Shown: in pieces, positions 1 through 13,154 of the stretch
Position numbering within the stretch: position 1 is the stretch's first letter
Layout of the letters: each line of letters starts with the position of its first letter
Source of the DNA: Candidatus Falkowbacteria bacterium
Lineage (GTDB): Bacteria > Patescibacteriota > Patescibacteriia > CAIXNZ01
Direction: 5' to 3'
DNA length: 64,000 bases
NCBI GenBank assembly: GCA_963774955.1
Contig: CAVZGV010000005.1
Location: forward strand, 30,495-94,494
The notes under the pieces: model-generated
Database searches by the model: none
What the model saw: the letters and a program-made list of their open reading frames with translations, nothing else
Told to the model about the DNA's origin: nothing
Program-made: the position numbers and the translations under genes

Positions 1-38
1 TCGTCGTCACGTCCTCTCATTTTCTCCTCCTTGATTTT

Positions 39-722
39 TCAGACTTGTTTTTCCATGGACGTTACTTCGAACGCCCCCTTGTCACGATCAAATGCCACCA
101 ATAAAACTCTGGTACCGCTGGGTATTTCTTCGTTAGCTCCGGTAAAAGCCGGGTATTGCTGCAAATTGTCAAAATTATCGCGGACTCTGACAGTTCCGTT
201 CTTGCTGTCAATGGAATAAAGAGCTTCGCCTATCTGATTGACCAAATCTTCCTCCACATTGCAATAGGTGGAAGTTTTGGGCATTACCTTGGACACGATC
301 CGGGAGACAAAGCCCGTGACTGTGAAGCTGATAATCAAAGCCGCAAACATAGACAGCGGCAGAAAAAGCAAAGGGGTGCGTAAAAGCGGATGCAGTAAAG
401 AATTGAGAGTAAAGCCTGAGAAGCCCCAGACAAAGCAGAGAGTCATCAGGACAATGGATATAGGCACATGGCCAATACCCAAAACCGAAGTTGCTCTCCA
501 GAAAATACTGTCCTCGCTAGCCGAAGATTCAGCATCATGATCATGGTCAGCGTCATGGTCGGCGTCAGTATCAAGGTCATGGTCAAGATCATGATCAAAA
601 TCATGATCACCATCACCTGACAAGCCGAGTGTCTGAATCAGCAGAAACAGCAGTCCCCCGCAAAACGGGATCACAAAGACCAGATTCCACCATTCGAATA
701 ATAGTTTCGTTTCCATGATCAT
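39..722 (-). CDS. NfeD-like membrane protein with His/Asp-rich (DHD)n linker
   Basis: N-terminal hydrophobic helices, then a DGDHDFDHDLDHDLDTDADHDADHDHD tract. C-terminal ~60 aa (VRVRDNFDN...GTRVLLVAFDRDKGAFEV) resembles the NfeD OB-fold beta-barrel. Confidence 0.45.
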   Translation of the reverse strand: MIMETKLLFEWWNLVFVIPFCGGLLFLLIQTLGLSGDGDHDFDHDLDHDLDTDADHDADHDHDAESSASEDSIFWRATSVLGIGHVPISIVLMTLCFVWGFSGFTLNSLLHPLLRTPLLFLPLSMFAALIISFTVTGFVSRIVSKVMPKTSTYCNVEEDLVNQIGEALYSIDSKNGTVRVRDNFDNLQQYPAFTGANEEIPSGTRVLLVAFDRDKGAFEVTSMEKQV

Positions 723-728
723 ACCTCC

Positions 729-1121
729 TTAGCGATCATTCTTTTGAGTTGCCTGACTATCTTTATACCATCGATATCCGATTTCTATGGCCAGGAAAAT
801 GAATAAAGCAATGCAACCGCCCTGGAAACTGACATCGCTGGTAAAAAATAACAGCAAGCTTGCCAGAATCAGATAAAATACCCGTTCCGGGGTTTGACTG
901 AGACTCTTAATGAGCGGTTCAATTACCTGGCTGATTATCTTATAGCCCATAAAAACCAGGCCTAAAATAAACAGCATAAAAAGGAAAACTACTCCTATCT
1001 TGACCAATTGCTGATGTTCAGCCGAGACACCTTCCACCAGGAAGATGTTCATTAGCCGATTAGCCACTTCCAGCAGCCAATCGGTCAGTGACTTGAGTTG
1101 CTCAATTTTTTCTGCCCACAT
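729..1121 (-). CDS. hypothetical small membrane protein
   Basis: 130-aa ORF with 3-4 hydrophobic helices, immediately upstream of the NfeD-like gene. Confidence 0.4.
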   Translation of the reverse strand: MWAEKIEQLKSLTDWLLEVANRLMNIFLVEGVSAEHQQLVKIGVVFLFMLFILGLVFMGYKIISQVIEPLIKSLSQTPERVFYLILASLLLFFTSDVSFQGGCIALFIFLAIEIGYRWYKDSQATQKNDR

Positions 1122-1282
1122 TTTTTTGCCTCCTTTTCTGTAATTTTAGCTAAAATATAATTGTCAAAAAAACTATAAAATCCCCCTTTCAGGGGAACTT
1201 ATTACCTTAACATATTTACATCTTTTGTCAAGTAATTAGCTAAAAAAACCCCGCACTTCGAGTGGAAGTACGGGGTAAAATT

Positions 1283-2095
1283 TTAATCGTTTAGATAATG
1301 AGTTTTCTGACAATGAGGACATTCAGTGGTCGACAAATCCTCATTGCAGTAAGGGCACTGCTCTAGCCCTGAGGGAATTTTTTCTCCGCAATCAGGACAA
1401 GGCTCAAACAGCAATTTTTCATTGCAGCCGGGACAGGTATCCTGATCGATAAAAATTTCTGACTGACCGCACTTGGGGCAGTCATAGTGGACCAGAAGCT
1501 GGTCACACTGGGGACATTTATACTCCCCTTGAAAATCATCCGGTTCAGGATCAGTATCAATATACTGGTTACAGCGGGGACAGATCCAGAGGTCTGCATC
1601 ACAATACGGACAGTTGTCTTCGTATTGACTGACGAAAATCTGCCGGCCGCAATTGTGGCATTTGCTCACAGTTAACGGCTCCTGACATTCAGAGCAGACT
1701 TCAGAATCAGCCCAGATGTCTTTGCCGCAGTGCGGACAGGTCATGTTCCAAAAGCTTTTTTTGCAAATGGGACACATGTCCGAGTCGTCAGCATCAGGAT
1801 CTTCGCCAATTTCCTGCTGACAGCGCGGGCAAGTCCAGGTCTGATCTTCTTTTGTCATCTCCGGAACCGAATCTGGTGGGACAGAAACTCCTAAAGCAGA
1901 ATACTTCAGCTGATTTTCATAGCCCCTTCTATCATGACATGATCGGGAACCATGATTTTCAGAGCTGTTGAAATAATCATGTAAATAGCTGGCTACCTTG
2001 AGATACAACAGCAAGCCTAAAATAGTTATTATCGCCAACAGCCAAATACGATTTGTCCCGGCAATACCCAGATAATCCATAATTTCATTCAACAT
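1283..2095 (-). CDS. membrane-anchored multi-zinc-ribbon protein (~11 CxxC...CxxC units)
   Basis: One N-terminal TM helix, then a serial array of CPxC/CxxC pairs (CPRC, CPIC, CPHC, CSEC, CHNC, CPYC, CPRC, CPQC, CPKC, CPGC, CPDC, CPYC, CPHC) spaced like zinc ribbons. Confidence 0.6.
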   Translation of the reverse strand: MLNEIMDYLGIAGTNRIWLLAIITILGLLLYLKVASYLHDYFNSSENHGSRSCHDRRGYENQLKYSALGVSVPPDSVPEMTKEDQTWTCPRCQQEIGEDPDADDSDMCPICKKSFWNMTCPHCGKDIWADSEVCSECQEPLTVSKCHNCGRQIFVSQYEDNCPYCDADLWICPRCNQYIDTDPEPDDFQGEYKCPQCDQLLVHYDCPKCGQSEIFIDQDTCPGCNEKLLFEPCPDCGEKIPSGLEQCPYCNEDLSTTECPHCQKTHYLND

Positions 2096-2339
2096 CTTCT
2101 GCCTCCTTGGTTATTGTTTGTCAGATCTTATCAGACTTTATATCTTAACATTATTGTCTCCAAACGTCAACATCTTGCACTAGTAGTCACTCCTTGGTCT
2201 TCAACAATATCACCTTTTGTAATTTATACAAATTATCAAATACCAAACTTTTTATCTTGCGTTGTAAACTGACCCGACCAAGAGTATACTTACAAATAAT
2301 AAAGATAATCGACTTATTTAATTATTAAATACAAAAATT

Positions 2340-2668: not shown

Positions 2669-2992
2669 TTATTTCTCAATATGGTTGGCAAGATGCGTCC
2701 ATGATTGCTGGGCTTCTTTGACCAGCTGTTTGGCCAGCTTGGCTGATATTTTTTTAGTCTTAGCATATTGCACTGCGGCTTTTTTCATAAATAGCTTATA
2801 TTCCTTTTCTCCCATTTTTTCAACCTTTTTTACCTTAGGCGAAATATCCTTATAAAAATCTGCCATGACATCTATAATATCATCTTTAACTATTTTCCCC
2901 TTCTTAAAACCCAAATAAACACTGGCGGCTACACCTAATGCGATCCCAATAACTGCTCCCTGCAAAAATTTAGTTGTATTACCTTTGGCCAT
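2669..2992 (-). CDS. hypothetical protein with N-terminal TM helix and Lys-rich helical region
   Basis: 107-aa ORF with its own promoter region, downstream of the groEL terminator. No confident family assignment (possibly YtxH-like). Confidence 0.4.
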   Translation of the reverse strand: MAKGNTTKFLQGAVIGIALGVAASVYLGFKKGKIVKDDIIDVMADFYKDISPKVKKVEKMGEKEYKLFMKKAAVQYAKTKKISAKLAKQLVKEAQQSWTHLANHIEK

Positions 2993-3137: not shown

Positions 3138-4796
<1,659 letters not shown>

Positions 4797-4911
4797 TTAA
4801 TAATAAATAAAAAGTGTAAAGTGAGCTATAAGAGCTAAATGGGGATAGGATAATATGGGAATATGGGAAATTTTTCACTTTTACCCTTTTCCCCTATAGC
4901 TCTTTTAGCTC

Positions 4912-5205
4912 TTATTCCCCTATAACTGCCAAGATATCCTCTTCCCTTATAATCAACAAGTCCTTTTCACCAGGCAGTTCATCCGGAGAATATTTTTTAA
5001 AAATAACTTTGTCACCGACTTTGACTGACATTGGCGCTCTTTGACCGTTTTCTAAAAGTTTGCCGGATCCGATGGCCACCACTTCGCCCTTTTCCGGTTT
5101 TTCCTTATCAACCGTATCAGGCAAAATAATACCGGCCTTGGAAACTTCCTGACCATTGATGGGTTTGATTAGGACGTGATCGTTTAGAGGTTTGTAGTTT
5201 GGCAT
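4912..5205 (-). CDS. groES: co-chaperonin GroES
   Basis: 97 aa, LKPLNDHVLIKP...GEVVAIGSGK...VKVGDKVIFKKY matches GroES. It sits directly upstream of groEL. Confidence 0.9.
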   Translation of the reverse strand: MPNYKPLNDHVLIKPINGQEVSKAGIILPDTVDKEKPEKGEVVAIGSGKLLENGQRAPMSVKVGDKVIFKKYSPDELPGEKDLLIIREEDILAVIGE

Positions 5206-5530: not shown

Positions 5531-6676
5531 TTATTTGCCTAAAAATCTTGCTAAACGACTCAAGCCCTCGGCCAATTCTCCCGGTGATGCCGCAAAGCTG
5601 AGCCTGACCCAGCCGGGATAGCCAAAGGCCATGCCCGGGACCAAGCCGAGTTTTTCCTGTTCCAGCAGCTCTTCACAAAACTTGAGACAGTCAACATTGT
5701 CGCCTGGGATTTTGAAAAAAAGATAGAAGGCACCCTGGGGCGGCAAGATCTCCAAGCCGGTTGCTTGGACAAACGGCAGTATAATCGTATTCAGCCGCTG
5801 TTCATAGGCTGCTTTCATCGTGGCCACTTCAGCCGCTGATTTGGCCAGAGCTGCCAAAGCAGCGTACTGGGAAATCGAGCTGGCACAGCTGGAAATCTGG
5901 GACTTGAATTTGGCCATGGCTGCAATCACTTCTTTAGGCCCAAGCGCATAACCCAGCCGATAGCCGGTCATGGCAAAAGCCTTGGAAGCGCCATCCAGAA
6001 TGATGGTTTTGTCCAGCATGCCCGGAAACTGAGCCATGCTGACATGCTTATTTTCGCCGTAAACGATCGGCGAATAAATCTCATCCGAAATCACCCAGAT
6101 ATTCTGGTCAGCCAGAATTTCCGCCATCGCGGCCATAACTTCAGGCGCAATCACAATGCCGGAAGGATTACTGGGTGAATTCAGGATAATTGCCTTGATC
6201 TTGGAATTAGCCAAAACCGCTGTAAGTTTGTCTAAATCCTTATAATCAAGAAAATGCGGCTTGCCGCCGACCAGTTTAACCATTTCAGGATAACTGGTCC
6301 AGTAAGGCTTGATGATCAGAACTTCATCTCCGGGATTTACTACCGCTGCCAGGGCCAAAAAAATCCCTTCTTTACCGCCATTGGTAGTCAAAATCTGAGT
6401 TAAAGGATCATAATCCAGACCGCGGCTTTCGTTGATTGACCCGGAAATCGCCTTCAGCAAAGGCGCTATGCCTTTGACCGGAGTGTACTTGGTTTTACCG
6501 GTTTTAGCTGCTTCGGCCGTGGCCTCAATGACCGCCTTAGGCGGTGGAAAATCCGGCTCCCCTGCCGCCAGGATAATTGTGTCCGGGAATTTGGCCTTCA
6601 TGTCTTTGGCTTTTTTATCAAAAGCCATGGTCACTGATTCCTGAATTTCGCTGACGCGTTTCGCTAGTTCCATCAT
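5531..6676 (-). CDS. class I/II pyridoxal-phosphate-dependent aminotransferase (AspC/aromatic aminotransferase-like)
   Basis: 381 aa with an SKAFAMTGYRLGY PLP-lysine region and NPSNPSG-like motifs. Overlaps tyrA by 4 nt, suggesting an operon. Confidence 0.85.
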   Translation of the reverse strand: MMELAKRVSEIQESVTMAFDKKAKDMKAKFPDTIILAAGEPDFPPPKAVIEATAEAAKTGKTKYTPVKGIAPLLKAISGSINESRGLDYDPLTQILTTNGGKEGIFLALAAVVNPGDEVLIIKPYWTSYPEMVKLVGGKPHFLDYKDLDKLTAVLANSKIKAIILNSPSNPSGIVIAPEVMAAMAEILADQNIWVISDEIYSPIVYGENKHVSMAQFPGMLDKTIILDGASKAFAMTGYRLGYALGPKEVIAAMAKFKSQISSCASSISQYAALAALAKSAAEVATMKAAYEQRLNTIILPFVQATGLEILPPQGAFYLFFKIPGDNVDCLKFCEELLEQEKLGLVPGMAFGYPGWVRLSFAASPGELAEGLSRLARFLGK

Positions 6677-7410
6677 ACCCCTCCTTGATTTACTTTTTTA
6701 TCGACTTTATCCAAACTTTCAATGAACCTTTGCCGCGTTTCCCTGGCATACGGATTGAAATTCTGCATGTCAAGAAAAAGTTGCCAAGAATCATTGGTCA
6801 CGGTTTCCATTACTCTTAACAAACGTTCAAAACCTAACGTGGTAATTTGTTGATCTTTAAAACCTACTTCCTCGAGTCCCCGACCGATAAAATGCACCAG
6901 GGATAAACTTTTAGCTGCCTGCTGGTCATGATCTTCGGGCGTGGTTTCAATTATCTTAACTTCCAGTTTATTTAAAATCTCTTTAACTTCAGCTAATCTG
7001 ACGGGACTAATTCTTAATGGACATAAAACCCACTGCAAATCCTTGGTTCCGTTTTTGGCGCTGTCCGGACCGAACATGGGATGAGTAGCCATAATTTCAT
7101 TGTCAGCGGAAATATTTTCCCGTAACCATTGACTGGGAAAAAATTTAACTGAACAGACATCCATGACCAAAGAGCCTTTTTTCAGCAATGGTGCGATTTC
7201 CTTTATCTTTTCATCGGTTGCAGATATTGCCACTGACACAAAAACCCAGTCACACTGACAAACCTCCTCAAGTGTCGCCCATTTCAAACCTAATTCTTTA
7301 GCCTCGGCTGATTTATCTGAACGATTACAAACCAGAACCTCGGCGTAAGGCTTAAGTATCTTGGCTAAAAGTTGTCCGAACCGGCTAAAGCCGATAATTC
7401 CGATGGTCAT
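6673..7410 (-). CDS. tyrA: prephenate/arogenate dehydrogenase
   Basis: N-terminal Rossmann motif IGIIGFSRFGQ and the overall TyrA-like layout. Confidence 0.8.
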   Translation of the reverse strand: MTIGIIGFSRFGQLLAKILKPYAEVLVCNRSDKSAEAKELGLKWATLEEVCQCDWVFVSVAISATDEKIKEIAPLLKKGSLVMDVCSVKFFPSQWLRENISADNEIMATHPMFGPDSAKNGTKDLQWVLCPLRISPVRLAEVKEILNKLEVKIIETTPEDHDQQAAKSLSLVHFIGRGLEEVGFKDQQITTLGFERLLRVMETVTNDSWQLFLDMQNFNPYARETRQRFIESLDKVDKKVNQGGV

Positions 7411-7479
7411 AAATATTATTTAACATCCAATAATCAATAATCAACATCCAAACAAATTCTAATTTCTAATAACCAATAA

Positions 7480-7854
7480 CTAATCTTTTTTAATTTCAGA
7501 TTTTTTATTGATTATTGCGGTGAAAATTTTTAATAATTCGGTTGCCTCTCCAATTAAAAACGCTTGTTCGCTTTGTGCCTTTTGTTCTTCACCGGGATCT
7601 GACAATTTCAACCACAATCTGCTTTCTTTCACTTCTTTTCTGCAAATACGAATCCTGAAAATAAAATCCTTATCGCTTATTGCTTCGTTAGCTTCTATAT
7701 AATTTGCCGCAGTTGAGCCTGAAGATCTAATAAGCTGCTTAGAATATTCAAGATTGGCCTGGGTTTTGGGTATCAACTTAGTATAATCCCTGCACCTCCT
7801 AGCAAATTCATAAGTCCTATCCTCTAAATCAAATTGGACATATTTTTCCCCCAT
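7480..7854 (-). CDS. four-helix-bundle protein (TIGR02436 / 23S rRNA intervening-sequence protein family)
   Basis: 124 aa, ...SSGSTAANYIEANEA... signature of the family. Confidence 0.8.
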   Translation of the reverse strand: MGEKYVQFDLEDRTYEFARRCRDYTKLIPKTQANLEYSKQLIRSSGSTAANYIEANEAISDKDFIFRIRICRKEVKESRLWLKLSDPGEEQKAQSEQAFLIGEATELLKIFTAIINKKSEIKKD

Positions 7855-7912
7855 AGATTTATTTATTATTTATTGATTATTAATTATTGTTTGATTATTG
7901 GTGATTGATTAT

Positions 7913-8489
7913 TGGTTATTTAGCCTTTGTTACCGCTAAAAACGTCGTAAAATTAAACTTCAAATCCTGAATTCCTTCTTCCAAGTATTTCCATCCCATA
8001 CAACTTGGCCGCTCCTTTGGCCGCAATGGTCGCCGTATCAGGAGTTAATTTGCCTTCTGCTAAATCTTTAACTGCCTTGGCAGTATCTTCCCACTGGATA
8101 ATTTCCGCTTGGGGCCACATTCTCTTAATATACATTTTACATTGTTTTAAAGCCTGATCATGAGAAGCAATTTTTTTAATATCTTCTCTTTTAGTTCCCG
8201 GTTTAACAATCAAATTATGGCGAATATCAATTTCAAACAGATTTTCAATATTAAATAAATGTTTAGCCATGGCATAAACAGCTTCATAGACAATACCGCC
8301 ATTGGAATTTTCAATGGGAAAAACTCCCATATTGATTTCGCTCTTATCCAAAGCAGTCAGCACATTTTCCACGGAAATTAAGTACCTGAGTTCATAGTCG
8401 CTTAAAGCGTTTTTATAAACATAATATTCAGCTGCTTCCTCGGAAAAAGAGCCCTGGGCTCCGGAAACGCCGATGATGAGTTTAGGCAT
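7913..8489 (-). CDS. pheA: prephenate dehydratase (PDT domain only), with a +1 frameshift near the 3' end
   Basis: N-terminal GxxGSFSEEAA PDT signature. The track ORF ends at 7953 (..KLYGMEILGRRNSGFEV). Removing one G near 7991 restores the conserved ..ILEEGIQDLKFNFTTFLAV.. ending and a stop near 7913. Confidence 0.75.
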
Positions 8490-8877
8490 AGATTTTGGAT
8501 TTTAGATTTTAGGTTTTGGATTATAGTTAAGTTAAATTTATACAATTTTAGCGTAAAAGTCAAAAACCCGTTTTGACAGTGTGAGCATAGTCGAACCATG
8601 TCAGGAGATGCGTCACCCTTCGACTAGCTCAGGGTGAAGGAAGAAATTAGGCCGCAGACGTCGGACTCTACGAAGTAGCGAATGAAACCGATATACGAAA
8701 ACGCATAATGACATTATTATATTCGTAAAAATTCGAATTTCGTAGATAACTTACAGCCTTTACAGCACTTCTACCCATAAAATACTAGCTAATAGTTAGC
8801 CACTCTCAGTTATTGACATTTTTATAAAAACATGCTATACTATTATATTAAGATTTGTAATAGCTTTAGCGCTATTT

Positions 8878-8930
8878 CCTCATCCCAGGACGGGATAATT
8901 TCAAGTAAGTTATTTTGTCCTGAGATGAGG
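8878..8930 (+). promoter_or_regulatory. conserved hairpin element H1 (14-bp stem, 25-nt loop) upstream of ORF 8969
   Basis: CCTCATCCCAGGAC-GGGATAATTTCAAGTAAGTTATTTT-GTCCTGAGATGAGG. A near-identical copy (H2) is at 9403-9455. Confidence 0.5.
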
Positions 8931-8968
8931 ATGAGTTCATTTTAAAAAACAAACCAAGGAGAAATCCA

Positions 8969-9361
8969 ATGGCTGATAAAGCGATCGATAAAGTGATCAG
9001 GGCATACCAGGAACGGAACTGGACTTATTGCGTGCGACCGCTTGGCGATAATCCGCCGACTGAACAAGCAATCATTACCCCGTACGTCTCTGATTCCGAA
9101 GAAGCCAAATTCAGAGCCTTGTACGACGGCTTTTCCGGAAAGTTCATTTTCCAGGATCTTGAACTTCTCAGTGCTCAACTGGAACATCCGGAATTGGAGG
9201 TCTATGGCAATAATCCCGGGATCAAAGACATCTACTTACTTACCGAAGACTGGGAAGGCCACCAGAAAGACAAATTGGCCCTTGCCTTCTTCGTCAAAAC
9301 GGCCCAGGATAAGAAAGCCAATAACCACTCAATCAGCGTTCTCTGGCTGATCGAAGTCTAA
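8969..9361 (+). CDS. hypothetical protein (cassette ORF A)
   Basis: 130-aa ORF with a strong SD (AAGGAGA) 7 nt upstream. Visibly GC-richer than neighbouring DNA. Confidence 0.5.
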   Translation: MADKAIDKVIRAYQERNWTYCVRPLGDNPPTEQAIITPYVSDSEEAKFRALYDGFSGKFIFQDLELLSAQLEHPELEVYGNNPGIKDIYLLTEDWEGHQKDKLALAFFVKTAQDKKANNHSISVLWLIEV

Positions 9362-9371
9362 TTACAATTTA

Positions 9372-9401
9372 CCCGCCCAAGCTTCTCGAAAGCACGGCGG
9401 G
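9372..9401 (+). terminator. terminator-like hairpin T1 (CCCGCC...GGCGGG), paralogous to T2
   Basis: CCCGCC-caagcttctcgaaagcac-GGCGGG with a weak T tract, about 80% similar to the terminator at 9948-9987. Confidence 0.35.
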
Positions 9402-9402
9402 T

Positions 9403-9455
9403 CTTCATCCCAGGACGGGATAATTTCAAGTAAGTTATTTTGTCCTGGGACGAGG
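9403..9455 (+). promoter_or_regulatory. conserved hairpin element H2 upstream of ORF 9557
   Basis: CTTCATCCCAGGAC-GGGATAATTTCAAGTAAGTTATTTT-GTCCTGGGACGAGG; the loop is identical to H1. Confidence 0.5.
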
Positions 9456-9556
9456 ACAATGTCCCTTAGACTTTACAGGCTTAGCTGGTCTGCCCAGCTA
9501 TTAAAACGGCTCTCTTAGGAGAGTTTACTACCCTATTTCATAGGAAAGGAAAAAAA

Positions 9557-9937
9557 ATGAAAAATTTCGGAAAGAACCTTCTCAAGGCTATCGGCATTTT
9601 CTTCACCGTCACTTTCTGTCTCTTCTTCGCTGGAGTAGCGGCACTTTCTGACATGGCCGTCCGGCTGGACCCAGCCTACAATGAAATGGAGCTTCTCCCA
9701 GGAGACGGGCTGGCAATCATTACCTTAGCTAGCCTTCAAGACTCTGATGGCGACGGCAGAAACGATCTGTGGGACTGCGCCCCCCAAGACCCGAATGTTT
9801 GGGAGGTCAAAACCTTGATCGAAAAGAAAAACGATTCCACACAGACACTGCATATATTATGGTCGTTTGATGGAGAAGCCTATGATGCGTATTTAACTCC
9901 ACCCACGGACATGTATCCGACCGAGGGGAAAAAATAA
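9557..9937 (+). CDS. hypothetical secreted/membrane-anchored protein (cassette ORF B)
   Basis: 126 aa with an N-terminal hydrophobic signal/anchor, preceded by a GGAAAGGAAA RBS. Confidence 0.5.
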   Translation: MKNFGKNLLKAIGIFFTVTFCLFFAGVAALSDMAVRLDPAYNEMELLPGDGLAIITLASLQDSDGDGRNDLWDCAPQDPNVWEVKTLIEKKNDSTQTLHILWSFDGEAYDAYLTPPTDMYPTEGKK

Positions 9938-9947
9938 TTTCCTCAAA

Positions 9948-9987
9948 CCCCGCCAAAAGCTTCTTGAAGGCTCGGCGGGTTTTTTTA
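9948..9987 (+). terminator. rho-independent terminator T2
   Basis: CCCCGCC-aaaagcttcttgaaggctc-GGCGGG followed by T8. Confidence 0.7.
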
Positions 9988-10011
9988 TTTAATGCGAATT
10001 GGTCAGACTTA

Positions 10012-10047
10012 TTTTACGGATGGACACACTTCAGTGTGTTATGGCTC
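10012..10047. repeat. left 36-bp direct repeat with palindromic core ACACACTTCAGTGTGT
   Basis: ttttacggatggacacacttcagtgtgttatggctc. It overlaps the transposase stop. The second copy is at 10598-10633, with 2 mismatches. Confidence 0.7.
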
Positions 10048-10589
10048 CCCTCATCACTTGGCGGTGTAAAATCTATCACCGGATACAAGTCAAATCTTTC
10101 ATATACTGTTTCCTCCCCATATTTTTCAATATGTTCATTAAAATCAGACCATTTGTAGTCTTTCATTTTAGAAACATAACCATGTTTAACCGGATTATGA
10201 TGATTGTAATTTACATGGGTCAAATAATTTCTTTCACTATCTAAAATGGTATCCCAATATTGCTCCCAAACTTTCCGTCCTTGGCAATTATCATATTTAT
10301 TTATTTTCCTTGAACTACTGCCATTAACTTGTTTTATAAATAAAGGCAATGCTTTGGCATTCTCAATATCTAAAACTAGCTGATAATGATTATCCAAAAT
10401 TACCCAAGAATCGCAAGTATAACCAAATTTATTTATAGCATTCATTAAACAATCATATAGTAACTGCTTTTTAAAATCATTATTGAAAAAATGAAGCCAG
10501 TCGTATGTCCTGACGGCGATAAAATACTTACTATTATCAAGCAAAACATGAGGGGGTCTATGTATATTTCTATGTTTAGGATATTCCAT
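10014..10589 (-). mobile_element. REP-associated tyrosine transposase (RAYT) / IS200-like Y1 HuH transposase, HuH degenerated to HYQ
   Basis: ...VWEQYWDTILDSERNYLTHVNYNHHNPVKHGYVSKMKDYKWSDF matches the RAYT/TnpA_REP C-terminal signature. The HuH position reads NHYQLVL. The track ORF uses a GTG start at 10613; the first ATG is at 10589. Confidence 0.75.
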
Positions 10590-10597
10590 AAAAAATA

Positions 10598-10633
10598 TTT
10601 TACGGACGGACACACTTCAGTGTGTTACGGCTC
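10598..10633. repeat. right 36-bp direct repeat (REP-like hairpin)
   Basis: tttacggacggacacacttcagtgtgttacggctc, same orientation as the left copy, just upstream of the transposase start. Confidence 0.7.
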
Positions 10634-10687
10634 TTCCGTATCTCCAAACAGTCCCCTAACAGACTAAAGTCTGTCCTTCCGGGTTAT

Positions 10688-12076
10688 TTATCTTACCCAG
10701 CCAATAACCTTTACAAACATGCCCAAGCACAACCACCAAAGCATAATGCCGAAATATAGAGTCCAAAAATAATGGTCAAAAACCATGAGCACTAAAATTG
10801 CAATTAAAATTGCCGTAAAGCCCAAAAACCAAAAATATTTTTCACGGTAAAATTCATGGATATCGCTAAACTTGAATAAACCGAAAACCTGGAGCAAACT
10901 AATCTGTTCATCAATTTTATATGTCCAGATGCGTCGCATGGCTTCAATAATAATTAGAATCAAAACTATAAAGCCAAAAATCCCCAGTTCAGCCGCAACC
11001 AATAAATAAACATTATGTACCGGCTGATATGAATAGCTGGGAAATTTGCTTAAGTCTTTATTATATAAAGCTAGGGTATAATTGCCCAGGCCGACTCCTG
11101 TCAGCCAATTATTTTTCAATAATTCCTTGGCCTGATCCAAATATTGCGCCCGCTCTTGCTGCGACTTCACTTCAAGACGGTCCTGGCTATTGATTCTGGT
11201 AAATAGCGGGCCGCGATAAATAATGCCCAAAAAGCTAAAAGTAATAATACCAATCAAGACCAAGGCTCCTAATTTACGTAAGGCTGTCGCATCTCTGGAA
11301 AAGCCTATAAAAATGGCCAGAAAGAAAAAAGCAATCGACAAAGACAAAAAGGCGCCTTTGGAAAAAGTAAAAAAAAGGCCGATCAAAATAACAGGCGCAC
11401 AAACCCAAAGTATAATTTTTTCCCATTGATGCCGGGCCAAAATTAAACTCACAACCAGCAACAAAAAACTGATAACTAAAAAACCAGCTAAAATATTGGG
11501 ATGAGGCAAAGAACCATAAGCGCGCAAAAGTCTCGATCCGGCTGTTTCTACCACTGAAACTCCCAAGGTTTGAGGCAATTGTTCGGCCATGCCCAGCCAT
11601 TTACTGGCCCAGACCTGCTGAGTAAAAAACTGATAAATACCCAGACCTGATTGGATAGTGCCGGCCAGGATCAAAGCGCCGACCAGCTTCAGATATCTGA
11701 ATTTGAAATTTATAGCCAGACAAAGCAGGCCCAAACCTTCCAGCATTTTCAATAAATAATACCAGGCGGCATTCTGATCAGGACTAAAGAAAATACTGAT
11801 AGCGGCGACGATTAACAGCGCTAAAAACAGGATGTAAAAATCCAAAACTTTATAATTCAAAAAAACTATTTCCCAATCCCGATTTAGCAACTTATAAATT
11901 AAGGCTAAAATCAAAATTAAAACCAATAAAACCTCCGTGGCATAAAGACTAAAAGTCAGATACTGACTATCCCCGTCACCCAGCATCCCATAATGCCAAA
12001 TCCACCTGGTTTGCCAGGGCAAAAGGAAAATAAAAAGATAAAACAGATATTCAATAATTTTGGCTAATTTGGTCAT
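10688..12076 (-). CDS. O-antigen ligase/polymerase-like (Wzy_C family) polytopic membrane protein
   Basis: 462 aa, at least 10 TM helices, and a ...AYGSLPHPNILAGFL... region resembling the Wzy_C H-x-N motif. Confidence 0.55.
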   Translation of the reverse strand: MTKLAKIIEYLFYLFIFLLPWQTRWIWHYGMLGDGDSQYLTFSLYATEVLLVLILILALIYKLLNRDWEIVFLNYKVLDFYILFLALLIVAAISIFFSPDQNAAWYYLLKMLEGLGLLCLAINFKFRYLKLVGALILAGTIQSGLGIYQFFTQQVWASKWLGMAEQLPQTLGVSVVETAGSRLLRAYGSLPHPNILAGFLVISFLLLVVSLILARHQWEKIILWVCAPVILIGLFFTFSKGAFLSLSIAFFFLAIFIGFSRDATALRKLGALVLIGIITFSFLGIIYRGPLFTRINSQDRLEVKSQQERAQYLDQAKELLKNNWLTGVGLGNYTLALYNKDLSKFPSYSYQPVHNVYLLVAAELGIFGFIVLILIIIEAMRRIWTYKIDEQISLLQVFGLFKFSDIHEFYREKYFWFLGFTAILIAILVLMVFDHYFWTLYFGIMLWWLCLGMFVKVIGWVR

Positions 12077-12182
12077 ATATTTATTATATCTTAATTAATT
12101 TAAATTGGCTAAGCAGGCTTGACATTCACATATTACCATGATAAGCTGAACAATCGAGTACCTTACAAACAAAGGAGAAGAA

Positions 12183-13154
12183 ATGAAAAAATTTCCAGTC
12201 GGCTTGTGTCTAACGATTGCAGTTTTGGGACTTTGTGCCCCAAAAGCCAAGGCTGAAAATCGTCACATGCAACTTGAATTCAATGAGTATGACGGCATGG
12301 TTTTAGGCATCAATATGATATCAAACGGGATGATGGGAGGAACCGGTGCTTACCTGACCGCCCATCCAAATGCCAATATTACGGATTTCCCGAAAATGAT
12401 GCGCAGCGAAATTTACTGGCGTGGTTTTTTGCAGGGATCAATCGGCGGCAGCCTGGTCTATGCCGGTGAAAAAACCATGACCTTTCAGACTGACTATGAA
12501 TATTCCATTCTGACCGGTAAACATCTGTCCAACTTGGGAACTTCAATAACCTATTCCGCCAGTCAAAATGAAAACTGGCTGGCCAATCCCAGTTATATTT
12601 CCGATCTCGGACCTATAGTTTTTCACTGGAAAAAAAGTTATGGCTGGAAACCTGAAGTTTACATCCTGCCCCATTCGCTGGTTGTGACAATGTATAGTTT
12701 CAGCCAATATACCTTTGAATCCGAACTAAGTCTTAAAACAGGCCTTCTCGTTTTTTCTGGAAAACTCTCTCCAGATAGCACGATTTTTGGTGTCTGTGAA
12801 GCCAATATAATCACCATGGATACTAAGGCCATTGATGGCTGGGCTGATGAAAACTCTTCATATGTGACTGAGTTTGTGCTAAGCCATGAATCGATCCACA
12901 GCCGCTGGAACCACTTCCAGTATATGCCAATGGATGCAATTTATAATTACCAGATCAATAACTGGGCCGATTCAACTACCAGGGTAAATCTTAACTTCTT
13001 GAGATATGAAAATCAGCCTTTCCGCATAGGCGCCGACCTGACCAGCGGAGTTTTTTTCTGGTCAATAGCCAAATGGGAAGATGCCGGAGGAACACCGCAG
13101 TCTTTAACTCTGCATGAAATGGCATCATCTAAACTTTTTCAATATGTCGACTAA
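12183..13154 (+). CDS. hypothetical secreted protein
   Basis: Signal peptide MKKFPVGLCLTIAVLGLCAPKAKA with an AAAGGAGAAG RBS upstream. No recognisable domain. Confidence 0.5.
   Translation: MKKFPVGLCLTIAVLGLCAPKAKAENRHMQLEFNEYDGMVLGINMISNGMMGGTGAYLTAHPNANITDFPKMMRSEIYWRGFLQGSIGGSLVYAGEKTMTFQTDYEYSILTGKHLSNLGTSITYSASQNENWLANPSYISDLGPIVFHWKKSYGWKPEVYILPHSLVVTMYSFSQYTFESELSLKTGLLVFSGKLSPDSTIFGVCEANIITMDTKAIDGWADENSSYVTEFVLSHESIHSRWNHFQYMPMDAIYNYQINNWADSTTRVNLNFLRYENQPFRIGADLTSGVFFWSIAKWEDAGGTPQSLTLHEMASSKLFQYVD

Follow-up and report, generated by a model that had tools for sequence, protein, structure and literature searches.

A tandem zinc-ribbon protein encoded beside NfeD-like and flotillin genes in Patescibacteria

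We describe a minus-strand gene at positions 1283-2095 of a 64,000-nucleotide stretch of DNA from Candidatus Falkowbacteria bacterium (GenBank assembly GCA_963774955.1, contig CAVZGV010000005.1, positions 30,495 to 94,494 of the forward strand), the whole of which is hereafter called the window. The gene, whose coordinates had been given correctly in an earlier reading of the same DNA (the original prediction), encodes a 270-residue protein in which a transmembrane (TM) helix and a flexible tether are followed by a long array of predicted zinc ribbons. In our estimation, there is about an even chance that this gene is the zinc-ribbon-array part of a three-part flotillin module specific to some Patescibacteria, also known as the candidate phyla radiation (CPR), with its product acting as a cytoplasmic adaptor or scaffold. 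Judging by its context, the window protein probably serves as an accessory to a flotillin scaffold rather than in binding metal or DNA.

Architecture of the zinc-ribbon array

By its domains, the window protein is classed in the DZR/zinc-ribbon superfamily. Of its 27 Cys residues, which make up 10% of the protein, 26 lie in 13 CxxC motifs, or knuckles, at residues 89, 108, 120, 134, 146, 162, 172, 194, 206, 221, 233, 247, and 259, with spacers between consecutive knuckles of 15, 8, 10, 8, 12, 6, 18, 8, 11, 8, 10, and 8 residues. The motif is CPxC in 11 of the 13 knuckles, the remaining two being CSEC and CHNC. The 13 knuckles are predicted to form six complete Cys4 zinc sites and to leave one orphan knuckle. 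This corresponds to 6.5 ribbons (six plus one half) instead of the ~11 units of the original prediction, which was probably a count of motifs and not of ribbons, because 11 of the knuckles are CPxC.

The array reads as an internal duplication, with two copies of a three-ribbon module of ~83 residues. When its halves (residues 86-169 and 170-255) are aligned, they give a score of 162.5, against 13.4 +/- 11.9 for shuffled sequences, and share 34 identities, 22 of which involve residues other than Cys. In family alignments of 15 and 20 sequences, whose mean column identities are 42% and 25%, respectively, each of the 26 knuckle Cys residues is either invariant or conserved to at least 90%. The knuckle pattern is thus far beyond chance, since the Cys residues are conserved at a mean column identity of 25% and the halves align well above shuffles. 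The homology search proposed in the original prediction (DZR, zinc_ribbon_2, or DUF families) gave a match to DZR, with both Pfam DZR (PF12773; 67.4 bits versus a cut-off of 27.3, in four stretches, the best spanning residues 120-165) and Zn_ribbon_3 (PF13248; 31.1 bits versus a cut-off of 27, residues 119-141) above their cut-offs. A match to Zn_Ribbon_1 (PF13240) covers residues 233-251. The window protein resembles these families in its knuckle motifs and spacing (CPxCG, ~10 residues, CxxC, xxL) and in its local fold. However, typical members have one or two ribbons, whereas the window protein would have six, arranged as a repeated three-ribbon module with a terminal half-site.

As for the predicted structure, the AlphaFold2 (AF2) model based on the 20-sequence alignment has a mean predicted local distance difference test (pLDDT) score of 80.3 and a predicted template modeling (pTM) score of 0.57, with pLDDT values of 85-96 in the array. 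This model was used in place of a single-sequence one, which was poor (pLDDT 52.7). DSSP assigns a β residue or strand to both flanks of every knuckle. Ribbons are thus predicted and their Cys residues are conserved, as the original prediction had supposed, and its single N-terminal TM helix is likewise recovered, both by the hydrophobicity scan and in the model. Between helix and array, pLDDT falls below 50 at residues 47-71 and 76-81, and the linker (residues 47-85) is predicted to be disordered, which gives a tether of ~45 residues. Foldseek finds local matches in BFVD, with probabilities of 0.99-1.0, to DZANK-type and annotated double-zinc-ribbon proteins. Against the Protein Data Bank (PDB), it returns nothing at E <= 1e-3, so no global relative was found there; the weak PDB matches are to the PolD DP2 zinc fingers, Rpo12, Nop10, and Rpb9, the best sequence match (E 4.7e-4) running over the cysteine pattern.

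The spacers suggest how the knuckles pair. We favor a long-spacer register, which makes the C-terminal knuckle the orphan, because the stand-alone Pfam models of a single ribbon fit the pairs with a 10-residue spacer (120/134 and 233/247), because insertions (13-18 residues) are tolerated in the long spacers whereas the junctions are fixed at 6 or 8, and because the long form P0040 (873 aa, 46 knuckles, with approximately seven full modules and partial ones) has no orphan knuckle in that register. The opposite pairing, through short spacers and with the N-terminal knuckle as the orphan, was considered in view of the 8-residue spacer of Nop10, but was judged less likely for the reasons just given and because the Nop10 matches have E-values of 0.26-0.57.

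The orphan knuckle itself is conserved. Its residues C259 and C262 and the following Y267 are each at least 90% conserved, almost every close member of the family has an odd number of knuckles (13, 15, or 21), and AF2 places a β-hairpin (256-258/265-267) at this C-terminus with pLDDT values of 84-91. We rejected C53/H54 in the linker as a ligand in cis, as these residues are not conserved, and the neighboring proteins contain no CxxC motif that could complete the site. One hypothesis is that the zinc site of the orphan knuckle is completed in trans, by a homodimer or a partner. This would be similar in concept to the Rad50 zinc hook, a lone CxxC half-site that needs a second half-site in trans, although the array protein has neither a sequence or fold relationship to Rad50 nor a coiled coil.

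Family members and their gene context

When 1.84 billion representatives were searched exhaustively with a profile, 21 clusters were found at E <= 1e-30, after which E-values drop from ~1e-29 to ~1e-15, so by sequence the zinc-ribbon-array family is small and sharply bounded. Wherever the source names an organism, the context is Patescibacteria: one distant family member is named Candidatus Falkowbacteria, several loci with the family carry DUF5671, and the window GroES clusters at 90% identity with that of Candidatus Buchananbacteria RBG_13_39_9 (Parcubacteria group, Patescibacteria). A scan of the GTDB representative genomes with the family profile, among which genomes that of the window is apparently missing, gave a single match, a distant DZR protein from an archaeon. 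NCBIfam, PADLOC, and Rfam gave nothing above threshold, and readings as a defense system or as a riboswitch-controlled gene were therefore dropped. Neither the NCBIfam and PADLOC models nor the literature that we found describes the family or its link to flotillin.

Family members differ in length and in how they begin. The number of modules ranges from 2 to ~7 or more, with two in the window protein and three in P0017. Most members start with a soluble domain of ~110 aa that has no Pfam match, and only the window protein, P0002, and P0187 (3 of the ~35 members examined) have a TM helix in its place. Hence, the description of a tethered tandem array of four-Cys zinc ribbons in the original prediction holds for the window protein, given its DZR score, conserved Cys residues, and confident AF2 model, but the membrane anchor is not a trait of the family. 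Since a TM helix can stand in for it, the N-terminal domain probably serves to bring the array to the membrane complex. Most homologues have neither a TM helix nor a signal peptide, from which we infer that the array must be cytoplasmic and that the window form is then N-out/C-in; the charge bias around its TM helix is weak.

It is the gene context that connects the family with flotillin. In 9 of 11 loci, NfeD/YqiJ-like and Band_7/Flot genes come after the zinc-ribbon gene in the same orientation, showing that the co-occurrence with an NfeD-like neighbor raised in the original prediction is real and extends to the flotillin gene. These nine loci are the window, L001, L002, L007/L008, a 41.7-kb Joint Genome Institute (JGI) contig, L011, L012, L015, and L016. 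Across them, identity between the zinc-ribbon proteins is no more than 30-55%, and the genes beyond the block are different each time. On the minus strand of the window, a 161-nt spacer separates the zinc-ribbon gene from a gene for a 130-aa membrane protein, after which come the YqiJ_N/NfeD-like gene and the flotillin gene, of which only the start is included. That start (MRGRDD) is matched by the N terminus of the L001 flotillin, MRGRDED, and on other contigs with the identical zinc-ribbon protein the YqiJ-like gene is followed by a gene for a 667-aa Band_7 protein. The window YqiJ-like protein is 85% identical to its L001 orthologue. More generally, the middle proteins of ~190-225 aa are mutually related within sub-types, and their matches to the NfeD C-terminal domain are weak (E = 4e-4, below the Pfam cut-off). 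L009 is different, the three-module zinc-ribbon gene (P0017) there having the flotillin operon 2.5 kb away on its upstream side.

Other features of these loci are worth recording. The 130-aa membrane protein of the window belongs to no Pfam family, and its equivalent at L001 (2509-2907) consists of two adjacent open reading frames (ORFs) of 36 and 85 aa, 79-83% identical to it, the gene there being either frameshift-split or truncated. At L009, a PspC-domain gene lies directly upstream of P0017, and an 869-aa MVP-shoulder protein with a faint Vault_3 match is encoded directly downstream (7305-9914); the MVP-shoulder domain has an SPFH-like fold. Between its TM helices 1 and 2, the window YqiJ-like protein has a His/Asp-rich loop, DGDHDFDHDLDHDLDTDADHDADHDHD (531-617, minus strand), that may bind metal; YqiJ-like orthologues elsewhere have similar acidic loops, some of them also His-rich. 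In five flotillin-linked loci, the flotillin gene is followed by a gene for a Pro_CA_2 protein. The post-flotillin proteins of ~170-220 aa (L007 11243-11854, L012 4989-5636, L009 3307-3813, and L015 10400-11071) mostly have an N-terminal coiled coil, with weak DivIVA and V-ATPase-E matches in L007, and then a Pro_CA_2 domain, and these domains keep the β-carbonic anhydrase zinc-ligand motifs CxDxR/HxxC (HCSDPRF, HEDC). If so, a carbonic-anhydrase-like enzyme would be tied to the flotillin operon.

Possible role and alternative explanations

Flotillin and other SPFH proteins organize membrane microdomains in all domains of life. To our knowledge, what SPFH cages bind in bacteria is largely unknown, the known bacterial partner being the NfeD protein. 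We propose that the window protein is anchored in the membrane by its one N-terminal helix, which would be followed by the flexible tether and, in the cytoplasm, by a compact and very acidic chain of six structural Cys4 ribbons with fixed junctions of 6-8 residues. The array would act as a protein-protein adaptor on the cytoplasmic face, beside the SPFH/coiled-coil assembly of flotillin and the OB domain of NfeD, and might dock on or organize the flotillin-NfeD assembly much as SamG/YdjG (with SamH) holds SamI. Targeting would depend on the soluble N-terminal domain in most members, and on the membrane helix instead in the window sub-type. If this is correct, the family would be a conserved, lineage-specific third component in minimal-genome organisms, where genes that are kept tend to matter, and its modular, length-variable array with a conserved half-site would provide concrete starting points for studying the recruitment of partners by flotillin scaffolds.

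The closest functional precedent would, by analogy, be SamG/YdjG of Bacillus subtilis. A transmembrane protein with a zinc ribbon, YdjG shares its operon with YdjH and with YdjI, which is an SPFH protein (PMC9239133), and YdjG/H are needed to keep YdjI at the membrane (PMC8581546; bioRxiv 10.64898/2026.02.06.704340). SamI/YdjI itself has a C-terminal zinc finger. The pspA-ydjGHI/samGHI operon follows the same gene logic, with a zinc-ribbon membrane protein, a second membrane protein, and an SPFH protein. There are, however, clear differences. YdjG has a single TF_Zn_Ribbon domain, in contrast to the six ribbons and half-site of the window protein; no pspA is found at the array loci, where only the L009 homologue has a PspC gene beside it; and the SPFH partner is a soluble Band_7_1 protein in B. 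subtilis but a membrane-inserted flotillin (Band_7 + Flot) here.

Ribbons joined to an SPFH domain are also found in fusion proteins (Band_7_1 + DZR, YdjI-like), two of which, P0039 and P0034, are among the weak matches to the window protein (E = 1e-2 to 4e-4). These fusions hint that ribbons and SPFH scaffolds work together, although they carry 2-3 C-terminal ribbons on the SPFH protein itself, whereas the window array is a separate and much longer protein. The order of a YqiJ_N/NfeD-like gene directly upstream of flotillin is shared with the NfeD-SPFH operons yqiJK and ybbJ-qmcA of Escherichia coli and yuaF-floT of B. subtilis. We know of no zinc-ribbon-array gene in these classical operons, which is consistent with the result for related flotillin loci given below.

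Several points speak against the proposed role. The link to flotillin is genomic only; the likeness of SamG/YdjG to the window protein is one of published description and gene order; and the knuckle pairing and overall shape of the array are deduced ones. At each of the seven loci examined, the zinc-ribbon gene is set apart from the NfeD-flotillin genes by a strong terminator hairpin and a conserved TTGACA(A/T)A box; the two are therefore adjacent transcription units and not demonstrably one operon, although transcriptional read-through into the NfeD-flotillin genes could occur. Some long-form family members are basic, not acidic, and distant long forms (P0188 and its paralogue, L013/L014) are found between MscS channel and Na+/H+ exchanger genes with no flotillin nearby. 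Finally, a scan of JGI metagenomes from the flotillin side found a family member, or an ORF with at least six CxxC motifs, in 0 of 80 loci. The flotillins of these control loci are 28-57% identical and come from other bacteria, the closest loci inspected (L017-L020) looking non-CPR. This result implies that the array is a lineage-specific addition and that flotillin in general does not need it.

Two side observations concern these same loci. The L013 long forms are two side-by-side paralogues of 715 and 522 aa (5784-12718), flanked by MscS-type and Na+/H+ exchanger/TrkA_N genes; 48 index blocks list the 715-aa protein, and 23 contigs carrying it were read. At L019 (1654-2289) and L020 (1428-2111), a protein bearing one zinc ribbon at its N terminus (MFCHKCGAQVDDQAAFCDKCGAAL) is encoded ~2.5 kb upstream of the NfeD-flotillin pair, which may be a coincidence.

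The gene context could also be misleading. The protein might be a generic DZR membrane protein whose function is unrelated to flotillin, with the adjacency inherited as synteny in one lineage, in which case an ordinary multi-ribbon protein would have been found and the finding would be of little consequence. This is consistent with a zinc-ribbon gene that has its own candidate promoter and terminator, with the long-form relatives outside a flotillin context, and with loci that are not fully independent because all come from one superphylum. We nevertheless consider it unlikely, since nothing but the block of three genes persists from locus to locus, the flanks beyond it being different each time and the proteins as little as 30% identical, one variant has come to adjoin a different protein with an SPFH-like fold (MVP shoulder), and SPFH-DZR fusions exist. 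A role in buffering, storing, or sensing zinc or a thiophilic metal at the membrane, with the knuckle Cys residues holding exchangeable metal that the neighbors use or sense, would suit the high Cys content, the 6-7 potential metal sites per chain, the loop DGDHDFDHDLDHDLDTDADHDADHDHD of the YqiJ-like neighbor, and the many related loci whose operon ends with a Pro_CA_2 protein keeping CxDxR and HxxC. However, the regular CxxC knuckles are those of structural zinc-ribbon families and not the CxC/CC clusters of metallothioneins, the confident β-hairpin prediction suggests a folded scaffold, the window sub-type has no Pro_CA_2 match, and no conserved metal transporter or regulator is nearby in the loci examined. 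Metal sensing or sequestering, as put forward in the original prediction, thus finds no specific support and is quite improbable. A metallothionein-like store in particular was rejected, the array having only regularly spaced CxxC motifs and confident β-hairpins.

The many predicted Zn-thiolate sites on a membrane tether would also suit a thiol redox or envelope-stress switch, or a holdase, in which oxidation of Zn-Cys4 sites frees zinc and unfolds the array, as in Hsp33 or the DnaJ zinc domain, and thereby alters flotillin microdomain behavior or exposes chaperone surfaces. Stress-type neighbors are indeed present: groES/groEL (3138-5205) and Transgly_assoc (2340-2588) in the window, PspC by the L009 homologue, and ClpB and HtrA-like proteases in L015. 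These neighbors vary between loci, though, only the NfeD-flotillin pair being conserved, and there is no Hsp33 or DnaJ family match in Pfam, which makes such a switch very improbable. A DnaJ-type cysteine-rich domain was rejected outright, as 0 of the 13 knuckles fit CxxCxGxG and DnaJ_CXXCXGXG gave no Pfam match. Nucleic-acid binding, for example as a DNA or RNA tether to the membrane, had also been suggested in the original prediction, and zinc ribbons do occur in many DNA- and RNA-binding proteins, including those behind the weak PDB matches (PolD DP2, Rpo12, Nop10, and Rpb9). But these matches are not significant, and the array is strongly acidic, with 36 D/E versus 12 K/R in 185 residues. 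Its net charge of -24, to which each Zn(Cys)4 site would add further negative charge, makes nucleic-acid binding extremely improbable, and the acidity is conserved in all flotillin-linked members checked (net charge -12 to -43). A zinc-binding anti-sigma factor (ZAS), which would have an HxxxCxxC motif in a cytoplasmic domain at the N terminus and an adjacent extracytoplasmic function (ECF) sigma factor gene, was rejected, since here the Cys region comes after the TM helix and the nearest genes on either side do not encode ECF sigma factors.

The adaptor role that we prefer could be extended. The variable-length arrays might be a third subunit class of Patescibacteria SPFH-fold cages, namely rigid acidic rods of 2 to ~7 or more modules, brought to the cage by an N-terminal domain or a membrane helix, whose C-terminal half-sites share zinc, with zinc availability controlling scaffold assembly or spacing. 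The cages concerned would be those of flotillin and, in one locus, of the MVP-like protein. This extension is speculative and must be regarded as distinctly doubtful.

Transcription signals and neighboring genes

The ORF at 1283-2095 is a real gene, with a strong ribosome-binding site, a promoter-like site, and a strong intrinsic terminator (Table 1). The promoter candidate (2170..2142) is a pattern match only, and such matches are not enriched relative to shuffled sequence. Since the exact 270-aa protein is also present in NCBI/ENA and in two independent Logan assemblies, the gene is no assembly artifact; these independent records matter in a window where three frameshifts interrupt groEL.

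Table 1. Coordinates of the zinc-ribbon-array gene, its signals and protein segments, and the genes downstream of it in the window
Feature	Position	Strand	Details
Zinc-ribbon-array ORF	1283..2095	minus	Complete, 270 aa, stop codon 1283-1285; ORF list, Pfam DZR E = 1.2e-18
Shine-Dalgarno AAGGAGG	2102..2108	minus	6 nt 5' of ATG; read from sequence
Sigma-70-like promoter candidate	2142..2170	minus	TTGACG, 17-nt spacer, TAAGAT, upstream TG; consensus scan
Intrinsic terminator	1241..1276 (hairpin 1276..1248)	minus	12-bp stem, 7 G-C pairs, T7 tail
N-terminal TM helix, ~residues 17-39	1979..2047	minus	Hydrophobicity scan; AF2 helix 16-45, pLDDT ~90
Flexible, poorly conserved tether, residues 46-85	1841..1960	minus	Low pLDDT; not alignable among homologues
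Three-ribbon module 1, residues 86-169	1589..1840	minus	Predicted knuckle pairs 89/108, 120/134, 146/162
Three-ribbon module 2, residues 170-255	1331..1588	minus	Predicted knuckle pairs 172/194, 206/221, 233/247
C-terminal orphan knuckle (half-ribbon) CPHC, residues 259-262, tail QKTHYLND	1286..1330	minus	
130-aa small membrane protein	729..1121	minus	First gene of the NfeD-flotillin unit in the window sub-type
YqiJ/NfeD-like membrane protein, 227 aa, His/Asp-rich loop	39..722	minus	Pfam YqiJ_N E = 7e-10
Flotillin (Band_7) gene start	1..20	minus	ATG at 20-18, encodes MRGRDD; runs off the left end of the window

Hairpins equivalent to the window terminator follow the orthologues in L001, L002, L003, L007, L010, and L012. 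In the window, the spacer after the zinc-ribbon gene (1122-1282, minus strand) contains a pair of terminator-like hairpins, one at 1276..1248 and the other at 1200..1178, along with two TTGACA boxes. These elements have the same order in the window and L001 (2218-2508), with a terminator, a TTGACAAAA box, a second hairpin, and a TTGACAAT box. This spacer, which matches no Rfam family, could be an attenuator or a small RNA. The NfeD-like gene has a long 5' leader at L002 (2319-2505), L003 (2632-2822), and L012 (2731-2892), in which an extra AGGAGG precedes a very short ORF (5-13 codons; MYSRSFQNLITRI* in L003, for instance) that may encode a leader peptide.

On the other side of the zinc-ribbon gene, the window contains a cluster of stress-type genes. 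Upstream of the zinc-ribbon gene and divergent from it, a gene on the plus strand (2340-2588) encodes a small membrane protein of the Transgly_assoc (GlsB/YeaQ/YmgE) type. Adjoining it is a gene for a 107-aa protein with weak YtxH/RPW8-like matches (2669-2992, minus strand). The cluster also comprises groES (4912-5205), which is intact, and groEL (3138-4784, minus strand), which is in four reading-frame segments, the three frameshifts reflecting either assembly indel errors or a pseudogene.

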